The notes under the pieces are model-generated. The model saw only the letters and a program-made list of their open reading frames with translations. It made no database searches and was not told where the DNA came from. Position numbers and translations under genes: made by a program. Below are positions 1,346 through 60,878 of a stretch of DNA of 64,000 bases, one piece after another (within the stretch, counting starts at the first letter, position 1; each line of letters begins with the position of its first letter). The stretch spans positions 46,298 to 110,297 of the forward strand of contig JAHCAO010000006.1 of assembly GCA_019634835.1 (NCBI GenBank), in the 5' to 3' direction. The stretch comes from Gammaproteobacteria bacterium (GTDB lineage: Bacteria; Pseudomonadota; Gammaproteobacteria; DSM-16500).

Positions 1346-2071
1346 TTACTGATTCCCTTCATCCACCCAAAATTTTGTCGCGCCAGCCACTGCAGCAGGA
1401 ACAATAAGAAAATTAAGAATGGGTATCATAGAACAAACTAACACGCTTGTCCCAAAACCCAGTGCAGTCCAATTACGTTGCGCCAACCAAGTGTGCACAT
1501 TCGACATAGAAATGCGATGATTATCCGTTGGATAATCAATATAAGTTAACGTCATTAACCAAGCATGGAACAAAAACAATAAAATGGCTGCGACGGCTTG
1601 AATCACTGGAACAAAAAATAAAATTAATATCAATAAAGCACGTGGAATATAATATCCAATAATAGAGAATTGCCGACCTAGAATACGTGGGACATCTTTA
1701 AGGTTATCCAGTAAACTACGCTCATCCGGAATTCTTCCGCTAAGATATAATTCAACTTTCTCAGCAAGAAAACTATTAAATGGAGCCGATATAATATTTG
1801 TCACCATGACAAAGGTATAGATAATAATGACAAAAAAACCAATAAAAAAAACTGCCCAAAGCAAAATGCTTAACCATTGCAACCATGCTGGTAAATAATG
1901 AGCAAACCACTGGTTAAATTCAATCATAAAATAACGTAATAAAAAAAATAATCCAATAAACAAGCAAATATTGATGCATAACGGGATGATGACAAAGCGT
2001 CGCATGCCAGGCCTAAAAATAAGCTTAAATCCAGCAAGAAAATAATGAAAACCTAAAACCATATTATTCAT
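1346..2071 (-). CDS. cysZ: CysZ-family sulfate transporter
   Basis: 241 aa. Aligns by eye along its length with E. coli CysZ (GFxYFxxGxKLIxxPGxRRFVIxPL, LQWLSxLLW, APFNxxLAEKVE, DVPRI, YxDYPxDNH). AGGAAG SD lies 6 nt upstream of the ATG. Confidence 0.8.
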   Translation of the reverse strand: MNNMVLGFHYFLAGFKLIFRPGMRRFVIIPLCINICLFIGLFFLLRYFMIEFNQWFAHYLPAWLQWLSILLWAVFFIGFFVIIIYTFVMVTNIISAPFNSFLAEKVELYLSGRIPDERSLLDNLKDVPRILGRQFSIIGYYIPRALLILILFFVPVIQAVAAILLFLFHAWLMTLTYIDYPTDNHRISMSNVHTWLAQRNWTALGFGTSVLVCSMIPILNFLIVPAAVAGATKFWVDEGNQ

Positions 2072-2088
2072 GAAATCATACTTCCTAT

Positions 2089-2218
2089 AGGAATTCCGCT
2101 GAAGGTAGTCGCCCCATTGTTTTTAGGCGACTTGGATTGCAGGATGCAATCCTAAACGCCATGGATGGCGTGTTGGGAGCTAAAAAACAATGGGGCGACT
2201 ACCTTCAGCAGAATTCCT
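2089..2218 (+). repeat. Family C palindromic element, copy C1
   Basis: 36-bp arms (AGGAATTCCGCTGAAGGTAGTCGCCCCATTGTTTTT / reverse complement, 1 mismatch). They enclose the core AGGCGACTT-GGATTGCAGGATGCAATCC-TAA-ACGCCATGGATGGCGT-GTTGGGAGCT. It lies between the MFS gene stop and the cysZ SD on the same strand, so it is intercistronic. Confidence 0.85.
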
Positions 2219-2251
2219 GTACGTCCTATCACTTTCCTATGTTTTATCATA

Positions 2252-3466
2252 TCAGCAAATGTGATATCGCCAAAACTTAGGCAGCAAGAAACAACAAAGT
2301 GCAACACCCATCACACATAATACTCCACCCGAAACAATAGACGCTGTAATTCCGAATGCTGCGGCCACCAAGCCTGCTTCAGTATCACCTAATCGTGGAC
2401 CGCTTAAATAACTAATCATTTCTATTCCTGCTAAACGACCACGAAACTCGTTAGGAATAGTTTCATTCCACATGGTCATGCGAAAAATTCCACTCATACC
2501 ATCAAAAGCACCTGCTAGTGACAAGAAAAATAATGCTACCCAGAAATTTGAGGCCAAGCCAAAAAAGACGATTGCAACACCCCACAAGATAGCTGAAACA
2601 GCAATGGCAAAGCCATAGCGTTTAATGTGTTTAGTCCAACCGCTAAAAAATGAAACCACTAAAGCACCTACTGCCGGCGCTGCATACAGCATGCCAAGCA
2701 CTTTAGCGCCGCCAAACCACATCGCAATAGCAGGAAACAAAGCAGTAGGCATGCCAAAAACCATAGCAATAAAATCAACCACATAAGTTCCCACTAATTC
2801 TTGGCGAGAAAATGCATAATGCAAACCTTGTTTTAAAGATGCCCATGTAGAATCATCACGTGTGCGCTTAGGTTTAGGGATATTTGTCATTAATAATAGA
2901 GCAACCAATGAAATGACAAAGCTGGCCACATCCACCAAATAGGTCACAACAATACCAAAACTAGCAATGAGTAAACCACCTATTGCCGGCCCGCCAATCA
3001 TCGCTACATTTGCTTTCAATGAAGCTAATGCACTCACTCCAGGATAATCTTCTTTAGCAACAATCTGCTGAACCATGCTTTCCAAGGCGGGTCTATGCAA
3101 CCCATTAAAAGCAGACATACATGAAGATACTAAAAACATAGCCCATATATGTGGAATAGGCAGACACGTATTCAAAGCTAATAATAAACTGCCAATGGCC
3201 AGTACCAATTCAGCAACCAATAATAACATACGCCGATGATAACGATCTGCAAATACACCTCCAATTAATGCAGTGAGTAACAAAGGCAATAATTGAACTA
3301 AGCTTAACAATCCTACCATGAGGGTAGAATGTGTTTCTGTATAAATTTGATACGGCAAAGCTACACCAGTAATCATCGTTCCCAAAAATGAAACAAACTG
3401 GCCTATATACAACAATGTGAAATTACGATTGCGGCGGAATAATGAAAAGTTAATTAAATAATTCAT
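2252..3466 (-). CDS. MFS transporter (EntS/MFS_3-like, about 12 TM)
   Basis: 404 aa, hydrophobic throughout. N-terminus FRNRNFxLLYIGQFVSxxG and loop motif GGVFADRYxRR are typical of MFS efflux proteins. Confidence 0.8.
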   Translation of the reverse strand: MNYLINFSLFRRNRNFTLLYIGQFVSFLGTMITGVALPYQIYTETHSTLMVGLLSLVQLLPLLLTALIGGVFADRYHRRMLLLVAELVLAIGSLLLALNTCLPIPHIWAMFLVSSCMSAFNGLHRPALESMVQQIVAKEDYPGVSALASLKANVAMIGGPAIGGLLIASFGIVVTYLVDVASFVISLVALLLMTNIPKPKRTRDDSTWASLKQGLHYAFSRQELVGTYVVDFIAMVFGMPTALFPAIAMWFGGAKVLGMLYAAPAVGALVVSFFSGWTKHIKRYGFAIAVSAILWGVAIVFFGLASNFWVALFFLSLAGAFDGMSGIFRMTMWNETIPNEFRGRLAGIEMISYLSGPRLGDTEAGLVAAAFGITASIVSGGVLCVMGVALCCFLLPKFWRYHIC

Positions 3467-3606
3467 AGGGCAAGGTAAAAAGCCTAACTAAGGCTGAGGC
3501 ACTATAAGGGGTTTAATAGACAAAGTAAAGTGATAGGTCCAGTGTTGAGAAAACATTGAGGTTGTATAATGAAGTGATCAGGCTATCTAACTAAGGAAAG
3601 TACACT

Positions 3607-4527
3607 ATGACTAGCGTGAATCTCCTGCAATACGAACCATGGCCAGCTTTACCTTATGACGAATTCCAATCTACACAATACCTACTGCACAGAGTGGTGC
3701 AAGCTATAGGTAAGCTCAAACTCGCAACACCATTCGAGCCCCATTGGGCAAATGTAACACTTTTTCTTACTAGTCAAGGCTTAACAACAGGGTTGATACC
3801 CTATCAAAAAGGAATTTTTAATGTTGATGCTAATTTTATTGATCATCACATCATTTTTACCTCTAGCTGGGGAGATAGTAAAAAAATCAAATTACATTCG
3901 ATGTCTGTTGCACAATTCATTAGTAAATTTCTTAACACGCTAAACGATATGGGCATAATCATGCCTATTAACCTCATGCCGCAAGAAATACCTAATCCCA
4001 TTGAATTTGATAAGGACCTTGATAGACGAGAATATCGTTCTGATCTTGTTAAGGCCTGGCAGCGCATTATGCTGAGTTCTTATCAAGTCATGCAGCGTTA
4101 TCATTCACGTTTTTATGGAATCACTCCTCCTATAGGGTTAATGTGGGGCACCTTAGATTTACGAGACGCACGTTACAAAGGTAAGCACATTCCAACAGAT
4201 GGGCCAAATTCAGGATACATTCGTCGTAATGCAATGGATGATGCACAAGTTGAAGTAGGCTGGTGGAGCGGCTCAGAACAGTATCCCCGCCCAGCTTATT
4301 TTTCTTTTATTTATCCTGAGCCTAATGGAATTGAACAAGCAACCATTCAACCTAGTAAAGCACATTGGGACAATTCACTCCGAGAATTTATTCTTGATTA
4401 TGATGATGTGCGCACTGCCAAGCATCCTGACCAAGATTTACTAAACTTTTTCGAGTCCACTTATGCAGTTGAAGCAGAAAAAGCAGGCTGGGAACCAGGG
4501 TTAGTGGTATCTGGAAATCCGGTGTAA
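3607..4527 (+). CDS. Conserved hypothetical protein, DUF5996-like
   Basis: 306 aa soluble ORF. The N-terminal pattern [40 protein letters not shown] resembles the DUF5996 signature as I recall it. Family assignment is from memory only. Confidence 0.6.
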
Positions 4528-4591
4528 CAAAGACTTACCTCTGGTTTTATGGAATAATAGACCAATCAGGGTATTCAAATGCAAGGAGAGC

Positions 4592-5377
4592 ATGATGTTA
4601 CTAAAAGATAAAGTTGCCATTGTGACTGGCGCAGCCAGTGGTATTGGAAAAGAAATTGCGCATACCTATGCACGTGAAGGTGCCAGCGTTGTCATCGCTG
4701 ATCTTGATCTAACACAAGCCAATGCAGTCGCAGAGGAAATTAAAGCCAACCAAGGACAAGCTTTGGGTGTAAAGATGGATGTTAGCCGCGAAGAAGAAGT
4801 GGAACACGGAGTAGAACAAGCGGTCAATGCATTTGGCAGCATCGATATTTTGGTAAGCAATGCAGGTATCCAACATATTGATCCCATCGAAAAATTATCT
4901 TTTGCTGATTGGAAAAAGCTGCTGGCCATTCAACTTGATGGTGCCTTTCTTACAACACGTAGCTGTATTCGCCACATGTATGAATCAAAACGCGGCGGCA
5001 GCATTATTTATATGGGCTCTGTCCATTCTAAAGAAGCATCCATGCTCAAGGCGCCTTATGTGACAGCAAAACATGGACTCATTGGATTATGTAAAGTGGT
5101 CGCAAAAGAAGGTGCAAAACATAATGTAAGAGCCAATGTTATCTGCCCTGGGTTTGTTCGAACACCGCTAGTCGAAAAACAAATTCCCGAACAAGCCAAA
5201 AATTTAGGGATCAGTGAAGAAGCTGTGATTAAAACAATCATGTTGAAAGATACTGTAGATGGTGAATTTACGACAACAGAAGATGTTGCTGCTGTAGCCC
5301 TTTTCTTTGCCTCATTTCAGTCAAATGCACTAACTGGACAATCTTTAGTGGTCAGTCATGGATGGTTTATGCAATAA
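4592..5377 (+). CDS. bdhA: 3-hydroxybutyrate dehydrogenase (SDR)
   Basis: TGAASGIGK cofactor motif, NAGIQH, YVTAKHG catalytic Y-x3-K, and [14 protein letters not shown]. This matches characterised bacterial BDH closely. Confidence 0.85.
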
Positions 5378-5387
5378 GCAAATCAGG

Positions 5388-6494
5388 ATGACAATGTCGA
5401 ATAAACCGCATGGTTATGACAAGGTAGTGTACCTTTTGCAAGGAGGTGGAGCATTGGGCACTTATCAGGTCGGTGCGTGTGAAGCATTGTTAGAATATGG
5501 TTGCACACCAGATTGGTTAGTTGGCACCTCTATTGGTGCCATTAACGCAGCTATTATTGCAGGGAATACACCAGAAAACCGTATCAAAAAATTGGAAGAA
5601 TTTTGGAGTATGATTGCCTCTCCCTGGCCCGCCGTCGAGCTTGTTGAAAAAAACTACATGGCAGAACAGTTACAAAAAAGTTGGAATGTATTATGGACTC
5701 TTTGGGTTGGGCAAACTGGATTTTTTAAACCTAGATTATTTAATCCCTGGATTGGCTTGTCTAGCTTCCCTGATCAACTGAGTTTTTATGATACGAGTGA
5801 ATTACGGTATACCTTAGAAAAACTGGTTGATTTCGATCTGATTAATAAAAAAGAAGTGCGCTTAACATTAGCGGCTGTTTGCGTTGAAGATGGTGAATTG
5901 GTTTATTTTGATAACATGACGCAAGAAATCGGTCCAGAGCATGTGATGGCAAGTGGTGCATTACCGCCAGGTTTTCCTGCTATCCGGATTGCAGGCAAAA
6001 ATTATTGGGACGGTGGGTTGAGTTCAAACACACCCCTTACTGCTATTATTAAGGAAAATATGCAGGAAAAATTGCTTTGCATTCTCATGCATCTTTTTTC
6101 TTATCACGAGCGAACACCAGCAAATTTATTGGAAATATTAAAATTAAGAAAAGATATTGAGTTTTCCAGCCGCTATCATCAAATCCTAACTTACATATGC
6201 AAAGTACAACACTTGCATAACCTCTTACACCATCTTGTTGATGAAGTGCCTGACATTCGCAAGATTGAAGGCGTGGATGAAATTATAAAATTCTCTCACC
6301 CTATCATTATGAATATCGTTCGATTTCATTACCGTGATTATCCTGGCAATTTATGGACGAAAGATTTTGACTTTTCACGTCAAACACTCATGGAGCATTA
6401 TCAATCCGGTTATCAAGATGTAAAGCAAGCCTTAAAAAATCCTGAATGGCTTTACCAGATACCTGAGCATGGAATTGAGTTGCATGAATTTTAA
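5388..6494 (+). CDS. patD: Patatin-like phospholipase
   Basis: GGGALGTYQVG oxyanion motif, GTSIGA serine lipase motif and DGG aspartate motif. Sits directly after bdhA, as in the Legionella bdhA-patD operon. The start is set at the ATG after the bdhA stop (ATG 5394 is also possible). Confidence 0.8.
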   Translation: MTMSNKPHGYDKVVYLLQGGGALGTYQVGACEALLEYGCTPDWLVGTSIGAINAAIIAGNTPENRIKKLEEFWSMIASPWPAVELVEKNYMAEQLQKSWNVLWTLWVGQTGFFKPRLFNPWIGLSSFPDQLSFYDTSELRYTLEKLVDFDLINKKEVRLTLAAVCVEDGELVYFDNMTQEIGPEHVMASGALPPGFPAIRIAGKNYWDGGLSSNTPLTAIIKENMQEKLLCILMHLFSYHERTPANLLEILKLRKDIEFSSRYHQILTYICKVQHLHNLLHHLVDEVPDIRKIEGVDEIIKFSHPIIMNIVRFHYRDYPGNLWTKDFDFSRQTLMEHYQSGYQDVKQALKNPEWLYQIPEHGIELHEF

Positions 6495-6500
6495 TGATGA

Positions 6501-6669
6501 GTGCATGACGAGTTTTTTGCAATGAAAGGAGAAGGGTATTTTGTATGAACCATTCACTCGCAGGCAGGAATCTGCGAGAGCAAAACCCAATCAAGGATGA
6601 ATGTGTTTTGCGGTGAATGGTGAAGAAAAAATACCCTTCTCCTTTCATTGCAAAAAACTCGTCATGCAC
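6501..6669 (+). repeat. Family A palindromic element, copy A1
   Basis: Perfect 42-bp inverted arms (6501-6542 / 6628-6669) around an 85-nt core. The core reads GTATGAACCATTCACTCGCAGGCAGGAATCTGCGAGAGCAAAACCCAATCAAGGATGAATGTGTTTTGCGGTGAATGG... It starts 6 nt after the patD stop and ends 21 nt before the adc start. Confidence 0.9.
6545..6616 (+). other. Candidate 23-codon micro-ORF inside the A1 core (MNHSLAGRNLREQNPIKDECVLR)
   Basis: ATG lies 8-9 nt after the purine-rich arm tract GGAGAAGGG and the ORF ends in TGA. The same ORF is intact in A2, A3 and A4. Coding status is unproven. Confidence 0.2.
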
Positions 6670-6690
6670 CTTTAATAACTGGAGATAACA

Positions 6691-7431
6691 ATGGATATTT
6701 CTGCAGTGAAACAACAAGCGTTTGCCATGCCCTTAACGAGCCCTTCCTACCCTAGAGGACCCTATCGTTTTATTAATCGTGAATTTTTTGTCATTACTTA
6801 TGAAACAGACTTAGATAAATTAAGAGAAGTAGTGCCTGCACCGCTTGAAGTCACTGAGCCTTTGGTTAAATTCGAATTTATCCGCATGCCGGATTCAACA
6901 GGATTTGGTGATTATGCGGAGTCAGGACAAGTCATTCCCGTGAGTTATCAGGGAAAAAAAGGTGGTTATGTTCATGCAATGTACTTAGATGATGAATCAC
7001 CTATTGCAGGCGGCAGGGAAATATGGGGATTTCCCAAAAAATTGGCCAAACCCAGTTTGTGTGTCACGAAAGAAACGTTAGTGGGACAATTGAATTATGA
7101 GACTCATCCTATCGCTATCGCCACAATGGGATACAAATACCATACATTGGCCACCGACACTGTGCATCAATCGCTGCTCACCCCTAATTACCTACTAAAA
7201 ATTATTCCGCATGTTGATGGTTCAGTACGAGTGTGTGAATTAGTCGAATATTATTTAGAAGATGTCACAGTCAAAGGCGCATGGAGCGGGCCTGCTGCGA
7301 TTCAATTAATGCAGCATGCATTGGCACCAGTAGCAGAATTACCCGTCAAAAAAGTTATTTCAGGCATACACATTCTCACTGATCTCACTTTACCCTACGG
7401 AAAAGTGATTTTTGATTATTTGAAAGAATAA
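6691..7431 (+). CDS. adc: Acetoacetate decarboxylase
   Basis: 246 aa, collinear with clostridial Adc: [39 protein letters not shown], catalytic-Lys region, [19 protein letters not shown]. Confidence 0.9.
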
Positions 7432-7439
7432 TACTGTAC

Positions 7440-8765
7440 ATGAAACACCACTGGTTTATTGTCATCTTATTGTCCTTTGTTGTAGGGATATTAGGCGCAT
7501 TGGCCGCTTTGATTTTTCAAGGCATGATTTCGTTGGCACATAATCTATTTTTTTCAGGACAATTAAGTTTTACTTATCATCAAACGGTCCACACCACACC
7601 TAGTATCTGGGGAATCGGTATTATTATCATTCCTGTTATCGGTTCTTTTATCGTGATATGGGCCACTAAAAACTATGCGCCTTCCGAAAAAGGATTAAGT
7701 GTACCGGAATTAATTTATGCTATTCGTTTTAAATCAGGCATTATCAACCCTGCGACTGCTGTTGTTAAAGTGCTAGCTTCTGCTATCACGATAGGAACAG
7801 GCGGATCAGTCGGCCGGGAAGGCCCCATTATTGCGATGGGGTCAGCATTAAGTTATCTCATGAGCCAGATGATTAGCTTATCACCGCATCATCGTGTTAC
7901 TTTATTGGCTGCCAGTTCTGCTGCAATTATCTCTACTACTTTTAATGCACCTTTAGCAGGCATTGCATTTGCTATCGAAGTGTTGCTGATTCAAATTAGC
8001 TTTCTTAATATTGTAGCCATTGTAGTTGCTTCCATGGTTGCTATTTACAGTAAATATTTATTCATTCATGTCACCCCCATTTTTCAGTTAGCTGCTATTC
8101 CACCTCATGATAATTATTATTTTATGCTGGATATCATTTTATCTTCTGTAATCTTAGGGATTCTTGCAGGCAGCTTATCTAGCTTATTTATTCGCGGACT
8201 CTATTGGTGTGAAGATGTATTCAAATCACTTTTTGAAAATTTATATTTGCGGCATGCGCTTGGAATGGGCGCAGTCGGTATCATGATGTATCAATTTATG
8301 ATTTATGGTGGCCATTATCATATTGAAGGGATTGGCTTTGCGACTATTCAAGATATATTAAATATGCTATTACAACATCCTCAATTCCTTATTTTGTTAT
8401 TCTTTGGTAAATTGCTAGCTACTTTTTTTACATTGGGATCAGGCGGTGTAGGTGGTATTCTCTCGCCCTCATTATTTTTGGGTGCAATCCTCGGCGCATT
8501 AGTTAACTTGATGATGAGTTGGTATTTTCCTTCTTTTTCAGCCTATTTTATTCCATTTGTGATGGCAGGGATGGCCAGCATGCTGGCCGGCAATACCAGT
8601 GCTATAGTGACATCTATTCTGTTAGTCATGGAGTTAACTCACGATAATAGTGCTATTCTTATTATCTCACTCACTGCTATTATTGCATGGCGAGTACGTC
8701 TGCTATTCTGCCGTGATAGCGCTTACACACTCAAATTGACGAGAAGAGGCATCTTGTTAAAATAA
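7440..8765 (+). CDS. ClC-family voltage-gated chloride channel / H+-Cl- antiporter
   Basis: 441 aa polytopic protein with ClC selectivity motifs GSGIP-like (GLSVPE), GGSVGREGP and GxFxP-like segments. Confidence 0.85.
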   Translation: MKHHWFIVILLSFVVGILGALAALIFQGMISLAHNLFFSGQLSFTYHQTVHTTPSIWGIGIIIIPVIGSFIVIWATKNYAPSEKGLSVPELIYAIRFKSGIINPATAVVKVLASAITIGTGGSVGREGPIIAMGSALSYLMSQMISLSPHHRVTLLAASSAAIISTTFNAPLAGIAFAIEVLLIQISFLNIVAIVVASMVAIYSKYLFIHVTPIFQLAAIPPHDNYYFMLDIILSSVILGILAGSLSSLFIRGLYWCEDVFKSLFENLYLRHALGMGAVGIMMYQFMIYGGHYHIEGIGFATIQDILNMLLQHPQFLILLFFGKLLATFFTLGSGGVGGILSPSLFLGAILGALVNLMMSWYFPSFSAYFIPFVMAGMASMLAGNTSAIVTSILLVMELTHDNSAILIISLTAIIAWRVRLLFCRDSAYTLKLTRRGILLK

Positions 8766-8775
8766 CCAGCGACAG

Positions 8776-8940
8776 GTGCATGATACGTTTTTTGCAGCAA
8801 GCAGAGGAAAGAATTTTGTATGAACCATTCACTTGCAGACAAGAGTCTGCGAGAACAAAACCCAATCAAGCATGAGTGTGTTTTGCGGTGAATGGTGAAG
8901 GAAAAATACTTTCTTCTTGCTGCAAAAACGCGTCATATAC
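8776..8940 (+). repeat. Family A palindromic element, copy A2 (arms imperfect)
   Basis: Same core as A1. The arms GTGCATGATACGTTTTTTGCAGCAAGCAGAGGAAAGAATTTT / AAAAATACTTTCTTCTTGCTGCAAAAACGCGTCATATAC carry several mismatches and indels. Confidence 0.8.
8820..8891 (+). other. Candidate micro-ORF inside the A2 core (MNHSLADKSLREQNPIKHECVLR)
   Basis: Intact ATG...TGA, 24 codons including the stop. GAGGAAAG tract upstream. Confidence 0.2.
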
Positions 8941-8978
8941 TCGCAGCAGTTAATATTTTTCATACAAGGAATTTAATT

Positions 8979-9308
8979 ATGTCATTTTTCAGAAACCATG
9001 CTCTCAGTGAATACACACTAATGAAGTTAACTTACATCAAGCAAAATACTGCTCCATTGGAATGGGAAGAGGAATTGGGATTTCGTAATCATGCCCTATT
9101 GTCACGTCCATTGAGTAAAGACACAGCAGAGAACATGCTTGCCAAAATTCATCAGACTGAACATCCTGATCATTTAAAAGCCTATAAAATCATCGCAACT
9201 AAAGATGACATGCAATTTAGAATACAAGTCAACTTAGATGGTATTAACCTTAAACTTTATGAACTAGAAAAAAGCCACGAGAACTCGTACAAAACATCAT
9301 TTTGCTAA
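8979..9308 (+). CDS. Hypothetical protein (orphan, 109 aa)
   Basis: ATG 8979 is preceded by AAGGA. The longer listed ORF (8892) starts inside the A2 arm. Contains an internal FRNHAL duplication. Its 3' end overlaps the uvrB 3' end by 12 nt (convergent). No family recognised. Confidence 0.35.
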
Positions 9309-28000: not shown

Positions 28001-28537
28001 GAATTAGTGGATCACACACCTAAATTCATTGGTATTGCTACACACCGTATTCTTCAACGGATTTCGCATACAGGAACCAGCTGGTGGTCAGTTCGCACTA
28101 CTCAAGAAAAAATATATTATTTACAATCTCGGCTAAACCAGTTGGGAATCTCCGAGGATAAAATAACATCCTCTGCTCAGCTAGCATTAAAATCTGTGGA
28201 AAATATGTTGTCTGATGAACGCGGCAGATGGATATTAAAAAAGCATCGCGAAGCAAAATCTGAGTATGCGATTACTGCTCTTATCGACAATAAACTAGAA
28301 AGCTTAATCATTGATAGAACCTTTATCGATGAGGCAGGTACCTTATGGATTATTGACTACAAAACTGCGGCCTTGACTCATCTTGATTTAGCATCTTTTC
28401 TTGCTAAAGAGTATGAAAAATATTTAGAACAAATGCAAAAATATTATCTTGCATTAAAAATACATCACCATGGCTCTATACGATTAGGTTTATATTTTCC
28501 CGCTTTACCCGCATGGCGTGAATGGGAGCCAATCTGA
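25082..28537 (+). CDS. AddA-like UvrD/Rep-family helicase with C-terminal PD-(D/E)XK nuclease
   Basis: 1151 aa. Contains APAGSGKT, DEFQDTS, VGDPMQSIYRFR and TIHTAKGLEFD, with a C-terminal WIIDYKT nuclease motif. Confidence 0.85.
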   Translation: MDIAENLIEQDKQHRLLALDPTQSFIVQAPAGSGKTELLIQRFLTLLSCVKSPEEILAITFTKKAANEMRARVLKSLKQALNDPEPNSPHAKKTWLLAKNALQRDAQYQWNLINNPNQLRIQTIDSLCSFLNKQLPLLSHFGSTPDITDNPTILYREAVQEVLMHVEENFAWSQAITRILLHLDNDLNKLQDLLVNLLSKRDQWLPYIQFNSNDDDIRKILEHQLGLVITDTLTTVRHHVPHHLVSELLAITRFAADHKGQYPVDAELTACQHLTQLPGTAADDKLTWIGLGKLLLTKEYTWRKRVDVGIGFPALKNIKNPHEKTLHTEYRQRFTALLTAMHDHENFRLALIEIFHLPHSSYSQEQWEILQSLLQILKVAAAQLRLVFQQHGQIDFIENTQAALSALGTSEQPTDLALVLDYQIKHILIDEFQDTSHTQYQLLEKLTAGWETHDGRTLFVVGDPMQSIYRFREAEVGLFIRMRNQGIHHLTLTPLTLAVNFRSTPTIVEWNNLYFRTIFPPFNNIATGAVSYSPSVSNADPCSMVPYATHSEELGLKNLRNTNNTDKTSIDIVGFVDAVNDTEAAHIIDLIQEIKQKYPEEKIAILVRSRAHLIEIIPALKRANLAYHAIDIDPLASRQPIQDLLSLTCALLHPADRIAWLSILRAPWCGLSLADLLIIAGSDPKAAIYDQLEKQNIRQQLSEEGRQRIDKIFPLLRKKIAVRGRYHLRAWIESTWLLLGGPACLSEYTEIDDVNAFFKLLEEFSTNTQSLSLDKLREIVSQLYASTQHDDENLQIMTIHTAKGLEFDTVILPKLDRKKPNDDKSLLLWMERPLTNDQIALLLAPIHAIGNDKDIIYEYINKQMRTKSDYETDRLLYVAATRAKKRLYLFFNVQSKENDDHRIEPGSFLAKIWQQIEKNKNKILKSIPQEKEADSLNLPPPHRFIQRIHSTWINPIKETATEQVALHRKSAGFELVDHTPKFIGIATHRILQRISHTGTSWWSVRTTQEKIYYLQSRLNQLGISEDKITSSAQLALKSVENMLSDERGRWILKKHREAKSEYAITALIDNKLESLIIDRTFIDEAGTLWIIDYKTAALTHLDLASFLAKEYEKYLEQMQKYYLALKIHHHGSIRLGLYFPALPAWREWEPI

Positions 28538-28538
28538 T

Positions 28539-28712
28539 GGGATGAATGATGAGTTTTTTGCAGCGAGAGGAGGAGGATATTTTGTATGAACCATTCACTC
28601 GCAGACAGGAGTCTGCGAGAGCAAAACCCAATCAGGGATGAGTGTGTTTTGCGGTGAAGGGTGAAGGAAAAATATCCTCCTCCTCTCGCTGCAAAAAACT
28701 CATCATTCACCC
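28539..28712 (+). repeat. Family A palindromic element, copy A3
   Basis: Arms of about 44 bp (GGGATGAATGATGAGTTTTTTGCAGCGAGAGGAGGAGGATATTTT / complement, 1 mismatch near the tip) around the conserved core. It starts 2 nt after the addA-like stop. Confidence 0.9.
28586..28657 (+). other. Candidate micro-ORF inside the A3 core (MNHSLADRSLREQNPIRDECVLR)
   Basis: Intact ATG...TGA. GAGGAGGAGGA lies 8 nt upstream. Confidence 0.2.
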
Positions 28713-28737
28713 ATTCTAAACAGATCCTAGTACGTTT

Positions 28738-28878
28738 CCGCACTAAGTTTGACCTGCGACTGCAAAGCCTCGAGGTCCTGTCATAGGCCAACTCTTTTTG
28801 TGCTCGCAAGCTGCGCGGGAAAAAGTTGGCCTATGACACTCATCGAACCAACCTCAATATGACTCAAACTTAGTGCGG
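28738..28878. repeat. Nested imperfect palindrome (family E, single copy in the window)
   Basis: Outer stem CCGCACTAAGTTTGA (28738-28752) / TCAAACTTAGTGCGG (28864-28878). Inner stem TGTCATAGGCCAACT (28779-28793) / AGTTGGCCTATGACA (28824-28838). Confidence 0.6.
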
Positions 28879-30295: not shown

Positions 30296-30428
30296 ATCAG
30301 GCATTCGTTGAAGGTCATCATCCTATTGTTTTTAAGCTCCCAACGCGCCATCCATGGCGTTTAGGATTGCATCCTGCAATCCAGTCGCCTAAAAATAATA
30401 GAATGACGACCTTCAACGAATGCCTGAT
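30296..30428 (-). repeat. Family C palindromic element, copy C2 (core inverted relative to C1)
   Basis: Core AGCTCCCAACGCGCCATCCATGGCGTTTAGGATTGCATCCTGCAATCCAGTCGCCT is the reverse complement of the C1 core. Arms of about 38 bp carry 3 transition mismatches. It overlaps the last 5 codons and the stop of the pilW-like ORF. Confidence 0.85.
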
Positions 30429-31672: not shown

Positions 31673-31754
31673 TATAGAGGTGCATAACATGTTTTTTGCA
31701 AGAAGAGGATAAGGGTATTTTTCCTTGCAAAAAACGTGCCATACCCCCATAGGG
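31673..31754 (+). repeat. Family A derivative lacking the core (A5)
   Basis: The left arm TATAGAGGTGCATAACATGTTTTTTGCAAGAAGAGGATAAGGGTATTTT is homologous to the A4 left arm. It is joined directly to CCTTGCAAAAAACGTGCCATACCCCCATAG, which matches the outer right arm. The core and inner right arm are absent. Confidence 0.6.
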
Positions 31755-33089: not shown

Positions 33090-33300
33090 ATTTCAATTTT
33101 GGGTATTCTATAGGCGCATGGCACGTTTTTTACAAGAGGAGGTGGGTATTTTGTATGAACCATTCATTCGCAGACAGGAGTCTGCGAGAGCAAAACCCAA
33201 TCAGGGATGAGTGTGTTTTGCGGTGAAGGGCGAAGGAAAAATACCCACCTCCTCTTGTAAAAAACGTGCCATGCGCCTATAGAATACCCAAAATTGAAAT
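33090..33300 (+). repeat. Family A palindromic element, copy A4 (longest arms)
   Basis: Perfect 63-bp inverted arms (33090-33152 / 33238-33300), verified base by base, around the conserved core. Lies in the divergent serC / marC-like spacer, 70 nt upstream of the marC-like start. Confidence 0.9.
33155..33226 (+). other. Candidate micro-ORF inside the A4 core (MNHSFADRSLREQNPIRDECVLR)
   Basis: Intact ATG...TGA. GAGGAGGTGGG lies 8 nt upstream. Confidence 0.2.
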
Positions 33301-60675: not shown

Positions 60676-60878
60676 GACAGGAATAGATCAGGCTTAGGAG
60701 ACATTCGTAGTATCTGAACGAGTCTGCCCTTTTTTATTTTTATATTTGGTCGCAAAAGACGTTTCCATTCCGACTTTTGCTAAAGTGGACTCCTGTCCAC
60801 TTTCCCTCATATAAAAATAAAAAAGGGCAGACTCGTTCAGATACTACGAATGTCTCCTAAGCCTGATCTATTCCTGTC
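60676..60878. repeat. Family D palindromic element (single copy in the window)
   Basis: Perfect 69-bp inverted arms (60676-60744 / 60810-60878), verified base by base. The 65-nt core holds two hairpins: GCAAAAG-15 nt-CTTTTGC and AAGTGGAC-TCCT-GTCCACTT. Confidence 0.9.

Follow-up and report, generated by a model that had tools for sequence, protein, structure and literature searches.

TwoAYGGAY (RF01731) is a structured RNA motif placed in Rfam clan CL00106 (Csr/Rsm protein-binding). The supplement of a 2010 paper (Weinberg et al., PMC2864571) already describes its P1 stem as long and almost perfect, and members are also found in Clostridia and gut metagenomes, some with a very short P1 (PMC2864571). 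The 2010 alignment includes at least five copies from the gammaproteobacterium Psychromonas ingrahamii, which have conserved C·U mismatches in their arms (PMC2864571). As a published hypothesis, TwoAYGGAY has been proposed to be a CsrA-binding sRNA (Gardner & Eldai 2015, PMC4333381), and its tandem G·A pairs are mentioned in the same paper. Although the motif has been in Rfam since 2010, the literature searched reports no tested function for it, nor does it describe an insertion and decay history or the maintenance of the arms.

Here we analysed a 64-kb stretch of DNA (the window) from an uncultured gammaproteobacterium. Its family A hairpin elements are copies of this catalogued RNA motif, multiplied and inserted between genes, and three further hairpins (family B) represent the motif in its classical form. 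Thirteen elements were studied, ten in the window (Table 1) and three in metagenome contigs (L001, L002a and L002b). Judged from its sequence, family A is most likely a mobile RNA module that binds CsrA.

Table 1 Family A and family B elements in the 64-kb window and the parts of copy A1.
Feature	Position	Strand	Description
A1, whole element	6501-6669	+	RF01731 match at 6509-6661, 46.4 bits against a gathering score of 43
A1, 5' arm (outer P1)	6501-6542	+	42 nt; T-run GTTTTTTGCA inside; pairs perfectly with 6628-6669
A1, internal loop, 5' side	6543-6549	+	Symmetric 7x7, GUAUGAA opposite UGAAGAA (6621-6627); rich in tandem G·A
A1, core, three-way junction	6550-6620	+	Inner P1 formed by 6550-6557 with 6613-6620
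A1, hairpin 1	6558-6577	+	8-bp stem with one G·U on the + strand; loop AGGA at 6566-6569
A1, hairpin 2	6580-6611	+	GCAAAAC/GUUUUGC and inner stem with conserved A·G; apex UCA-AGGA-UGA at 6591-6600
A1, 3' arm	6628-6669	+	Perfect complement of 6501-6542
A2, decaying copy	8776-8940	+	Core 8825-8895, 93 bits with model R1; loops AAGA and AGCA (GGA gone)
A3, intact copy	28537-28714	+	RF01731 match, 62.7 bits
A4, intact copy	33090-33300	+	Arms 63/63 bp; in the divergent spacer upstream of a MarC-family gene
A5, internal-deletion derivative	31673-31754	+	Without core and inner 3' arm; left-over arms 79% complementary
A6, diverged copy	48867-49005	-	Core 48902-48972, 70 bits with R1; loops AGAA and ACGA (GGA gone)
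A7, strongly diverged copy	60676-60878	-	Core 60742-60812, 34 bits with R1; arms 70/70 bp
B1, classical TwoAYGGAY form	2073-2234	+	RF01731 45.5 bits at 2088-2219; loops GC-AGGAU-GC and CC-AUGGAU-GG
B2, family B	45671-45817	+	Arms 45/45 bp; sense, between co-directional genes
B3, family B	30296-30428	-	RF01731 42.5 bits, slightly below the gathering score of 43

Results

Identity of the elements

The initial annotation of the window listed six family A copies. All six were found where it had placed them, the core-less A5 included, and a seventh copy (A7) and the three related family B hairpins are also present. The arm lengths given there for A1 (42/42, perfect) and A4 were reproduced, and the arms of A3, put at about 44 bp, comprise 46 bp and one bulged base. 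The core pattern occurs five times in the window and not once in 100 shuffles. Copies lie close to genes: the A3 5' arm begins on the final stop-codon base of a UvrD/AddA-like helicase gene, A6 lies upstream of a Na+/dicarboxylate symporter gene, and A7 sits in sense orientation between an AMP-binding-enzyme gene and gyrA.

RF01731 was scored on A1, A3, A7, L002a, B1 and B3, with the family A copies searched in short stretches. The gathering score was reached by L002a (70.5 bits), A3, A1 and B1, and A7 gave no match at E ≤ 10. The Rfam alignments of L002a and A3 bring hairpin 1, hairpin 2 and the conserved junction bases AG and CGG into register with the consensus. No named repeat family had been recognised in the initial annotation, which itself held that a database match would remove the novelty; with RF01731 matching A1, A3 and L002a above the gathering score, the lack of a named family is not supported and most of the novelty is gone.

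Rfam scans of the whole window and of 2.6-5-kb stretches did not detect family A, probably because the speed filters are stricter in these longer scans. Since copies that clear the gathering threshold in short stretches escaped a standard whole-contig Rfam scan at that threshold, TwoAYGGAY-type repeats are probably under-annotated in metagenome-assembled genomes.

Family A shares with TwoAYGGAY two adjacent GGA-loop hairpins, tandem G·A, the conserved junction bases AG and CGG, and a closing P1 that is very long and nearly perfect. It differs in loop 1, which is CAGGAG and not AYGGAY, and in loop 2, which reads ARGGAU in the copies of the window. Hairpin 2 contains a conserved A·G within its stem, P1 reaches 63-70 perfect bp, and A7 has drifted out of reach of the RF01731 model.

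Matches to plant and animal microRNAs (MIR2646, MIR7996 and others) were far under their gathering scores and were rejected as generic long hairpins, found on either strand. A self-cleaving ribozyme was likewise rejected: the junction strands measure just 0-2 nt, and the best match, Hammerhead_HH9, scored 11.9 bits (gathering score 52).

A conserved core between variable arms

Each copy has a conserved three-way-junction core of about 71 nt, closed by long arms that pair nearly perfectly and differ between copies. The minimum-free-energy fold of every copy is P1 enclosing two hairpins, with P1 and arms of 42-70 bp. The internal loop of the A1 type is kept in A1-A4 and missing in L001 and L002a.

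Covariation in the core stems, which the initial annotation had suggested checking, was evident in nine cores: 13 of 28 pairs are altered on both sides, a number that none of 500 shuffles reached and that compares with at most six in slid controls, in an alignment that had been fitted to the model and so favours structure. In A7, hairpin 1 reads AAGUGGAC-AGGA-GUCCACUU, with four of its eight pairs altered on both sides. That the centre is the conserved part also stood, as A3 and A4 differ at 1/71 core positions against 18/45 arm columns, and the figures given for A1 and A3 were recovered (five differences in the 71-nt core and one in the internal loop; 5/21 inner arm positions).

GGA is present in both loops of seven of the nine cores and lost from both loops of A2 and A6. 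Loop 1 is C-AGGA-G in six cores and C-AGGA-A in A1, so that AGGA is kept in 7/9; loop 2 is AUGGAU in L001 and L002b, and AGGGAU or AAGGAU in A1, A3, A4 and L002a. Set against AYGGAY in both loops, loop 1 keeps GGA without the flanking Y, and loop 2 of the window copies has R, not Y, before GGA. Apex 2, UCA-(G/A/U)GGA-UGA, matches at the sequence level the CARGGAUG within the CsrA SELEX consensus RUACARGGAUGU, whose GGA lies in a hairpin loop (PMC4347634). The two GGA loops are 21-28 nt apart.

Insertion and decay

A metagenome scan with the core pattern returned only L001 and L002. The alaS-lysC spacer of L002, which is occupied by L002a, measures 177 nt against 5-17 nt in four relatives; L002a is missing at this junction in L005, L007, L009 and L011, and its left arm supplies a new stop codon to the alaS gene of L002. 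The L002b site is empty in L007, L009 and L011, and L005 holds a remnant of about 50 nt with both junctions kept. Orthologous spacers, proposed earlier as a check of presence and absence, proved informative, each site being filled in L002 and empty in at least three relatives. What inserts is the entire palindromic unit, either between genes or at the end of a gene, and decay by point mutation and internal deletion comes later. At the chloride-channel gene orthologue of L004, synteny is broken downstream and the site is uninformative on the insertion of A2.

Insertion polymorphism followed by decay would also be produced by a palindromic DNA repeat that is selfish and nothing more, similar to a MITE, REP or ERIC, with the core as a DNA site for a mobilising enzyme, the RNA without a role and the GGA loops incidental. 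Such a repeat would suit the density of ten elements per 64 kb, with 9/9 long inverted repeats in the window belonging to families A and B, the placement of copies in a gene end and the two antisense copies, and homogenisation from arm to arm is naturally a DNA process. The ends of the elements, however, are the opposite of a transposase-bound inverted repeat: termini are not conserved between genomes or even between copies (A7 against A1), no terminal inverted repeats common to the copies were found, and the arm sequences of A7, A6, L001 and L002a/b are unlike those of A1-A5. Nor is a target-site duplication clear in the filled and empty L002a and L002b sites, which gave only weak 5-nt candidates (AACAT/ATCAT, AATAA), and no direct repeats flank A4, A7 or B2. 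No transposase was present among 20 flanking proteins scanned, and no RAYT-like gene was seen adjoining any copy. The selfish explanation also has to contend with a core that keeps 96% identity between genomes in which the arms can hardly be aligned, with the preference of G·U mismatches for the GGA strand (below), and with a two-GGA-hairpin layout common to the TwoAYGGAY of Clostridia and gut metagenomes, some of them with a short P1. We consider it unlikely.

Beyond the metagenomes, the strict core pattern had no match in 185,579 species-representative genomes, and a looser pattern had none in viral contigs. In the species-representative genomes the looser pattern hit L003, which was rejected as a chance match in GC-rich coding sequence resembling an efflux-pump gene. 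A protein search with the six-frame core translation (for spurious ORF calls) and a blastn search against plasmids and phages returned no match.

Pairing of the arms

Arms are near-perfect in 7/7 GGA-intact copies. The decayed arms are those of A2 (seven mismatches and three indel columns) and A6 (31 nt at 94%, with three mismatches and one indel), which have lost GGA in both loops, and those of the core-less A5; all three are decaying copies. GGA loops and the long P1 are thus retained or lost together, which is new here. The arms of A7 are unrelated in sequence to those of A1-A5.

The initial annotation had every arm change mirrored on the partner arm. This was true of 15 of the 18 columns that differ between A3 and A4, but the arms of A2, A5 and A6 are imperfectly compensated. 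Its claim that wobble mismatches favour one strand was upheld: across both families, copies with intact GGA have arm mismatches that comprise eight G·U on the GGA strand, two A·C and no transversions. The G·U excess on that strand (p ~0.003 against a null of 1/3) could in part come from strand-biased C-to-T mutation on the non-template strand. Mismatches in the B3 arms, read on the GGA strand, are three G·U and one A·C. The behaviour of the arms is that of a selected RNA helix, since almost every mismatch they tolerate is G-U on the GGA strand. With a conserved centre, paired and fast-changing arms, mirrored stem changes and strand-favouring wobbles, the folded nucleic acid proposed in the initial annotation is supported, and is most likely RNA.

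L002b provides a dated case of arms staying paired, also new here. Its 42-bp arms have kept 41 Watson-Crick pairs and one G-U wobble at a synonymous divergence of about 0.26 per site, and it predates the split of L002 and L005, which have a four-fold-site divergence of 0.51-0.57. Under neutral decay about 19 of the 42 arm pairs would be expected to be broken, and the single G·U compares with about 5.5 expected if wobbles were neutral. The arms are more perfect than selection for helix stability alone should give, and we therefore infer an added DNA-level step of arm copying.

A perfect duplex of 42-70 bp is a textbook substrate for RNase III. The elements could be cis-acting modules of mRNA processing or stability that act without CsrA, the duplex serving as an RNase III site or as a 3' exonuclease barrier that uncouples cistrons and the apex binding another factor or none. 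Their position between cistrons and directly 3' of stop codons would fit, as would the rarity of G·U in L002b if a perfect duplex is needed. Left unexplained would be why GGA is so strictly kept in both loops and why it is lost jointly with the arms in A2 and A6, and the very short P1 of some TwoAYGGAY members indicates that the duplex is not the defining part; we rate such a module as rather improbable.

Orientation and transcriptional context

Cores had been described as always sense to a neighbouring gene. A tendency of this kind exists, with seven elements in sense to co-directional flanking genes, but B1 and L002b are antisense and the bias is not significant (one-sided p = 0.09). A consensus scan of positions 1900-9100 found no terminator-like sites at B1, A1 or A2, and promoter-like sites were not enriched there (18 against 21.4 expected from shuffles). 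An intrinsic terminator was considered and rejected: a T-run lies on the 5' side of the core and an A-run on its 3' side, and no terminator-like site is found at the elements scanned.

L002, which carries family A, encodes csrA at 6727-6993, with a product 78% identical to Escherichia coli CsrA, and close relatives also carry csrA. L002b lies 248 nt upstream of it, antisense. No csrA was found within the 64-kb window.

The common clan and the common logic of GGA loops raise a further alternative, that the elements are stand-alone sRNA genes of the RsmY/RsmZ or CsrB type, each with its own promoter and terminator and acting purely as a CsrA sponge. B1, antisense to both neighbouring genes, would need a promoter of its own, and a promoter-like site, TTGACG-16-TAAAAT preceded by a TG, stops 13 nt short of A2. 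This alternative is nevertheless very unlikely, given the site counts above, a T-run 5' of the core instead of 3' of the stem, and copies that fill spacers within operon-like gene rows; ten regulated sRNA genes per 64 kb would be unprecedented.

A short peptide gene of 23 codons (ATG AAC CAT TCA ... CGG TGA), whose frame is open in A1-A4 and follows a Shine-Dalgarno-like GGAGG located in the 5' arm (in A1, A3 and A4, 9-13 nt ahead of the ATG), is essentially refuted. L001 lacks the start codon and has an in-frame stop upstream, L002b is frameshifted by a 1-nt deletion, and A7 has no such frame. In hairpin 2, the replacement of an A-U by a G-C pair is structurally compensatory yet non-synonymous (Cys to Arg), and a duplex of 42-63 bp would hide both the start codon and the Shine-Dalgarno-like sequence.

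Discussion

We give roughly even credence to a joint reading in which TwoAYGGAY copies insert and decay, ride as passengers on host mRNAs, present a predicted CsrA clamp and have arms subject to DNA-level copying. The elements would be transcribed as part of host mRNAs, and one CsrA dimer, as predicted from the loop sequences, would clamp both GGA loops on that mRNA. With CsrA so bound, the element would serve either as a sponge or to place the protein beside a downstream ribosome-binding site. The long P1 would make the module fold independently of its flanking sequence, and RNase III may cleave it. One arm may be copied onto the other by template switching within the palindrome at replication, or by repair of the folded hairpin.

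More tentatively, and with a probability we place below even, TwoAYGGAY might be a mobile RNA-protein-binding cassette that spreads a putative high-affinity two-site CsrA clamp through Coxiellales-like operons and rewires or buffers the Csr regulon, its arms perfected by hairpin-templated copying (arm-to-arm conversion or regeneration at each insertion). If so, its mode of propagation and maintenance would be unlike that of transposase-bound inverted repeats.

As natural history, TwoAYGGAY acts as an insertable module, with filled and empty sites, a new alaS stop codon and later decay. Should CsrA binding be confirmed, the insertion of a preformed binding cassette would be one way in which a global post-transcriptional regulator acquires or sheds targets or sponge capacity.

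Comparison with known systems

CsrB, RsmY and RsmZ, of clan CL00106, resemble family A in having GGA in hairpin loops that fit the CsrA SELEX consensus and paired sites that one dimer could bridge. The genes for these RNAs are regulated, present once and equipped with a promoter and a terminator, and each RNA has some 4-22 sites, whereas families A and B are many two-site modules that would lie in host transcription units, with a long closing duplex and no promoter-like or terminator-like site above background.

Among palindromic repeats, ERIC/IRU, Correia/NEMIS (Neisseria), RUP and REP/BIME are units of 100-200 bp that lie between operon genes, are co-transcribed and form long RNA hairpins. 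Repeats of this type are sometimes RNase III targets, and both sense and antisense insertions occur. Their arms and termini are conserved and the family is defined by its sequence; family A has a conserved apex and drifting arms. No such family is known to have a protein-binding two-hairpin apex. The REP/REPIN layout is reversed in family A, which has a conserved 71-nt centre and variable arms in place of conserved short arms and a variable loop.

QMITE2 of Coxiella burnetii is a hairpin repeat of 150-190 bp with about 50 copies that overlaps the C-terminal ends of genes and is a source of sRNAs (Wachter et al. 2018, PMC5896051). Compared by description, family A is similar in forming hairpins, in overlapping gene ends and in coming from a related order (Legionellales/Coxiellales), and it differs in that the 7-11-nt direct repeats of QMITE2 are not evident.

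For the arms, the parallel is mutational. Template switching at quasi-palindromes reportedly goes back to Ripley in 1982 and to work of the Lovett laboratory, and arm-to-arm gene conversion operates in the palindromes of the human Y chromosome. Both are mechanisms of mutation and not families of elements, and in the present case they are inferred from the deficit of mismatches. In both, an alteration arising in one arm is transferred to its partner, which leaves arms that are perfect within a copy and still diverge between copies, as do those of the elements described here.

Hairpin copies in the window

Family A copies consist of a ~71-nt three-way-junction core set between long paired arms. 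All six copies in the initial annotation (A1–A6, with A1 the element under study) are present where it placed them and align with one another as it described; its anatomy of the element is right, and the feature is real and accurately described. The long paired arms hold for A1 (42/42 bp), A4 (63/63 bp) and A3 (46 bp plus one bulged base); A2 and A6 are imperfect, and A5 has neither the core nor the inner 3′ arm. A search with a tolerant core pattern gave five matches in the window and none in 100 shuffles. A covariance model of the 71-nt core (R1), run without filters, recovered five cores in the window and found two further copies: A7, which the annotation had missed, and a second copy (L002b) in the metagenome locus L002. 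Flanked by an AMP-binding-enzyme gene and gyrA, A7 has a strongly diverged core and arms unrelated in sequence to those of the other copies. The window contains nine long inverted repeats (arms ≥24 nt, separated by no more than 250 nt), each of them a member of family A or of a second hairpin family, B; the two families amount to ten elements in the 64 kb, ~2.5% of the window DNA.

Antisense mechanical ORFs of 44–114 codons cross some elements and are likely spurious automatic gene calls. A 23-codon reading frame in the window copies was rejected, the copy on metagenome contig L001 having no start codon, L002b being frameshifted and A7 having no such frame.

Coordinates of elements and neighbouring features
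Feature	Sequence	Position	Strand	Remarks
A1	window	6501-6669		element under study
A7	window	60676-60878 (core 60742-60812)	-	R1 match; arms 70/70 bp
B1	window	2073-2234	+	classical TwoAYGGAY core, loops GC-AGGAU-GC and CC-AUGGAU-GG
B2	window	45671-45817	+	as B1
B3	window	30296-30428	-	as B1
Rfam match at B1	window	2088-2219		whole-window scan
Antisense ORFs	window	6388-6717; 28465-28809; 8829-8963	-	cross elements
Promoter-like site	window	8736-8763	+	TTGACG, 16-nt spacer, TAAAAT, TG upstream
Arm 5′ ends at stop codons	window	6492-6500; 28535-28550
Arm 5′ end at stop codon	L001	4455-4460
Arm 5′ end at stop codon	L002	4901-4903
Replication initiator gene	L001	4458-5879	-	Rep3-type (PF01051, PF21205)
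L002b	L002	6342-6479		antisense orientation
csrA	L002	6727-6993
Family A remnant, ~50 nt	L005	8337-8386		lysC-csrA site; without core and most of arms
GGA-loop hairpins	L011	3253-3368		mutS-cinA spacer
GC-rich palindromes	L009	8-92; 1414-1515; 2513-2604		arms 41-46 nt, loops 10 nt

Fold and covariation

In every copy the fold starts with a long outer stem, continues through P1 (UUCAC/GUGAA) and ends in two hairpins, the first with an AGGA loop on an 8-bp stem and the second comprising GCAAAAC/GUUUUGC, an inner stem with a conserved A·G, and UCA-NGGA-UGA on top. Across nine cores, in an alignment that was fitted to the model and so favours structure, 13 of 28 core pairs were altered on both sides, a count reached by 0 of 500 shuffles and set against at most 6 in slid controls. 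Compensated changes include UUCAC/GUGAA to UUUAC/GUAAA in L002b, GCAGAC/GUCUGC to GUGGAC/GUCCAC in A7, and CAAUCA/UGAGUG in the window to CGAUCA/UGAGCG in L001, L002a (the other L002 copy) and A6. A symmetric 7×7 internal loop rich in tandem G·A (GUAUGAA opposite UGAAGGA) is common to A1–A4 and missing from L001 and L002a.

Assignment to TwoAYGGAY

The initial annotation recognised no named repeat family, which proved wrong. On ~190-nt stretches, where Rfam search filters are laxer than on longer ones, L002a (70.5 bits), A3 (62.7 bits) and A1 (46.4 bits) matched the Rfam family TwoAYGGAY (RF01731) above its gathering score of 43, and in L002a and A3 both hairpins as well as the AG and CGG junction bases fit the family consensus. 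Family B scored 45.5 bits (B1) and 42.5 bits (B3); A7, too diverged, gave no match to this model. A whole-window Rfam scan returned only two tRNAs and the TwoAYGGAY match at B1, and scans of 2.6–5-kb stretches found no family A copy. At least four elements pass the TwoAYGGAY gathering score in ~190-nt stretches, and the whole-window scan at gathering thresholds reported one of them; speed filters probably lose AT-rich long hairpins on long inputs. A ribozyme reading was rejected by a short-stretch Rfam search of L002a, and a terminator reading by a consensus terminator scan of window 1900–9100 (B1, A1 and A2).

Weinberg et al. reported TwoAYGGAY in 2010, with at least five copies from Psychromonas ingrahamii in their alignment (PMC2864571). 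A role as a CsrA-binding sRNA was put forward by Gardner and Eldai, who also pointed out tandem G·A pairs (PMC4333381).

Distribution and relation of the two families

A core-pattern search of 185,579 species-representative genomes found no family A core, its single match (L003) being a chance one inside coding sequence, and none was found in viral contigs, plasmids or phages. Two JGI metagenome contigs, L001 and L002, carry the core; the source of L002 is Aquicella-like (87% identity between its lysC and the Aquicella siphonis gene). The window comes from an uncultured gammaproteobacterium; its chloride-channel protein has a 100% match to P0001, and the next homologue shows 61% identity. Over the 55 nt of hairpins 1 and 2, the window and L002a differ by one compensated pair only, and the arms are barely alignable. 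The L001 copy and family B have the inner arm motif UGUUUUUAGG in common, suggesting that the two families, with their inner P1, share an ancestor. Immediately upstream of its element, L001 carries a gene for a Rep3-type replication initiator, so this contig could represent a plasmid or integrated DNA.

Insertion, decay and arm maintenance

Comparison of spacers among relatives, proposed in the annotation, yielded filled and empty orthologous sites for both L002 copies (gene order alaS-[L002a]-lysC-[L002b]-csrA). The alaS–lysC spacer measures 5–17 nt in the related loci L005, L007, L009 and L011 (lysC 95–87% identical) and 177 nt in L002, where it is made up of L002a, the left arm of which supplies the alaS stop codon (...EHKQ* versus ...EHS* in L005). 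Directly after the lysC stop codon, L007, L009 and L011 have AAAAATGCAAATCC, and L002b is inserted at that point in L002. The L005 remnant retains both junctions (left (C/G)ATGATT, right GCC(G/A)AACATTTACAAAA) at the matching site, so the L002b insertion is older than the L002/L005 split, with the centre later lost in L005, like that of A5. Such remnants reflect decay by internal deletion. No convincing target-site duplication was found at the filled and empty sites.

At four-fold sites, L002 and L005 have diverged by 0.51 in lysC and 0.57 in alaS (~0.26–0.28 per lineage). Under neutral decay, ~19 of 42 arm pairs in L002b would be broken, with ~5.5 G·U if wobble were neutral. Only one G·U is present in the arms, so active maintenance, and not just a young age, accounts for their pairing, provided that the remnant in L005 is homologous and that arm sites mutate as four-fold sites do.

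Several arm 5′ ends abut or overlap the upstream gene's stop codon, and stop codons are abundant there in several frames (TAATGATGA, TGATGGGATGAATGATGA, TGATAA). L002b lies 248 nt upstream of csrA, in antisense orientation and just ahead of a conserved csrA promoter-like region (AATGCAAATCC...TACTAT); the csrA leader has its own GGA motifs (CAUGGAU, AAGGAGAUGGAUA). This adjacency may be due to chance. The A. siphonis mutS–cinA spacer (L011) holds a 28-bp stem, 93% complementary, around 60 nt that include hairpins with GGA in their loops (ACG-AAGGA-CGT and GUAC-AGGGAU-GUAC). It may represent a further CsrA-type hairpin element restricted to one lineage, or else an Rsm-like sRNA; elsewhere the spacer is just 37 nt (L007) or the genes overlap (L009). 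The repeated GC-rich perfect palindromes of the Aquicella-like contig L009 (for example, GGGTTAGCGCTTCTCAGCGTAACCC) are unrelated and form a different REP-like family.

RNA-level and DNA-level signals

One rival explanation is a DNA-only selfish repeat. Arm mismatches in GGA-intact copies of both families comprise eight G·U on the GGA strand, two A·C and no transversions (G·U excess p ~0.003 versus a null of one third each), to which strand-biased deamination could contribute. All seven GGA-intact family A copies have near-perfect arms (perfect or G·U-only). A2 (AAGA, AGCA) and A6 (AGAA, ACGA) have lost GGA from both loops and are the only copies that retain a core but have decayed arms; the arms of core-less A5 are 79% complementary. 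The annotation's view that the core is always sense to a co-directional neighbour stood for seven elements with co-directional flanking genes (A1, A2, A7, B2, B3, L001, L002a) and failed for B1 and L002b (one-sided p = 0.09), B1 being antisense to both a CysZ-like gene and an MFS transporter gene. As elements occur on both genome strands under a uniformly negative GC skew in the window, their orientation tracks genes, not replication.

Stand-alone sRNA genes are another rival; a consensus scan of window 1900–9100 found promoter-like or terminator-like sites at the elements no more often than background. One promoter-like site, within the chloride-channel gene 3′ end and 13 nt before A2, is one of 18 in 7.2 kb versus 21 by chance.

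Proposed mechanism

We propose that the element is carried along on host transcripts and that its two GGA loops would bind one CsrA dimer. The two motifs lie 21–28 nt apart, GGA to GGA, and apex 2 contains, by sequence match and with GGA in the hairpin loop, CARGGAUG of the CsrA SELEX consensus RUACARGGAUGU (PMC4347634). P1 may shield the module from flanking sequence and could serve as a target of RNase III; the rival here is an RNase III or stability module that acts independently of CsrA. CsrA binding is hypothetical even for the parent family TwoAYGGAY. The deficit of even G·U pairs points to a further step at the DNA level, in which one arm would be copied onto the other. Candidate routes are quasi-palindrome template switching and hairpin repair.

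Our analysis demonstrates TwoAYGGAY membership, a fold supported by covariation, insertion and decay, arms maintained over the long term, and wobble bias. Family A belongs to the known Rfam family TwoAYGGAY, with a proposed role in CsrA binding; the sequences described here are new, somewhat atypical members, and what they show of insertion, decay and the upkeep of the arms adds modestly to knowledge of that family.
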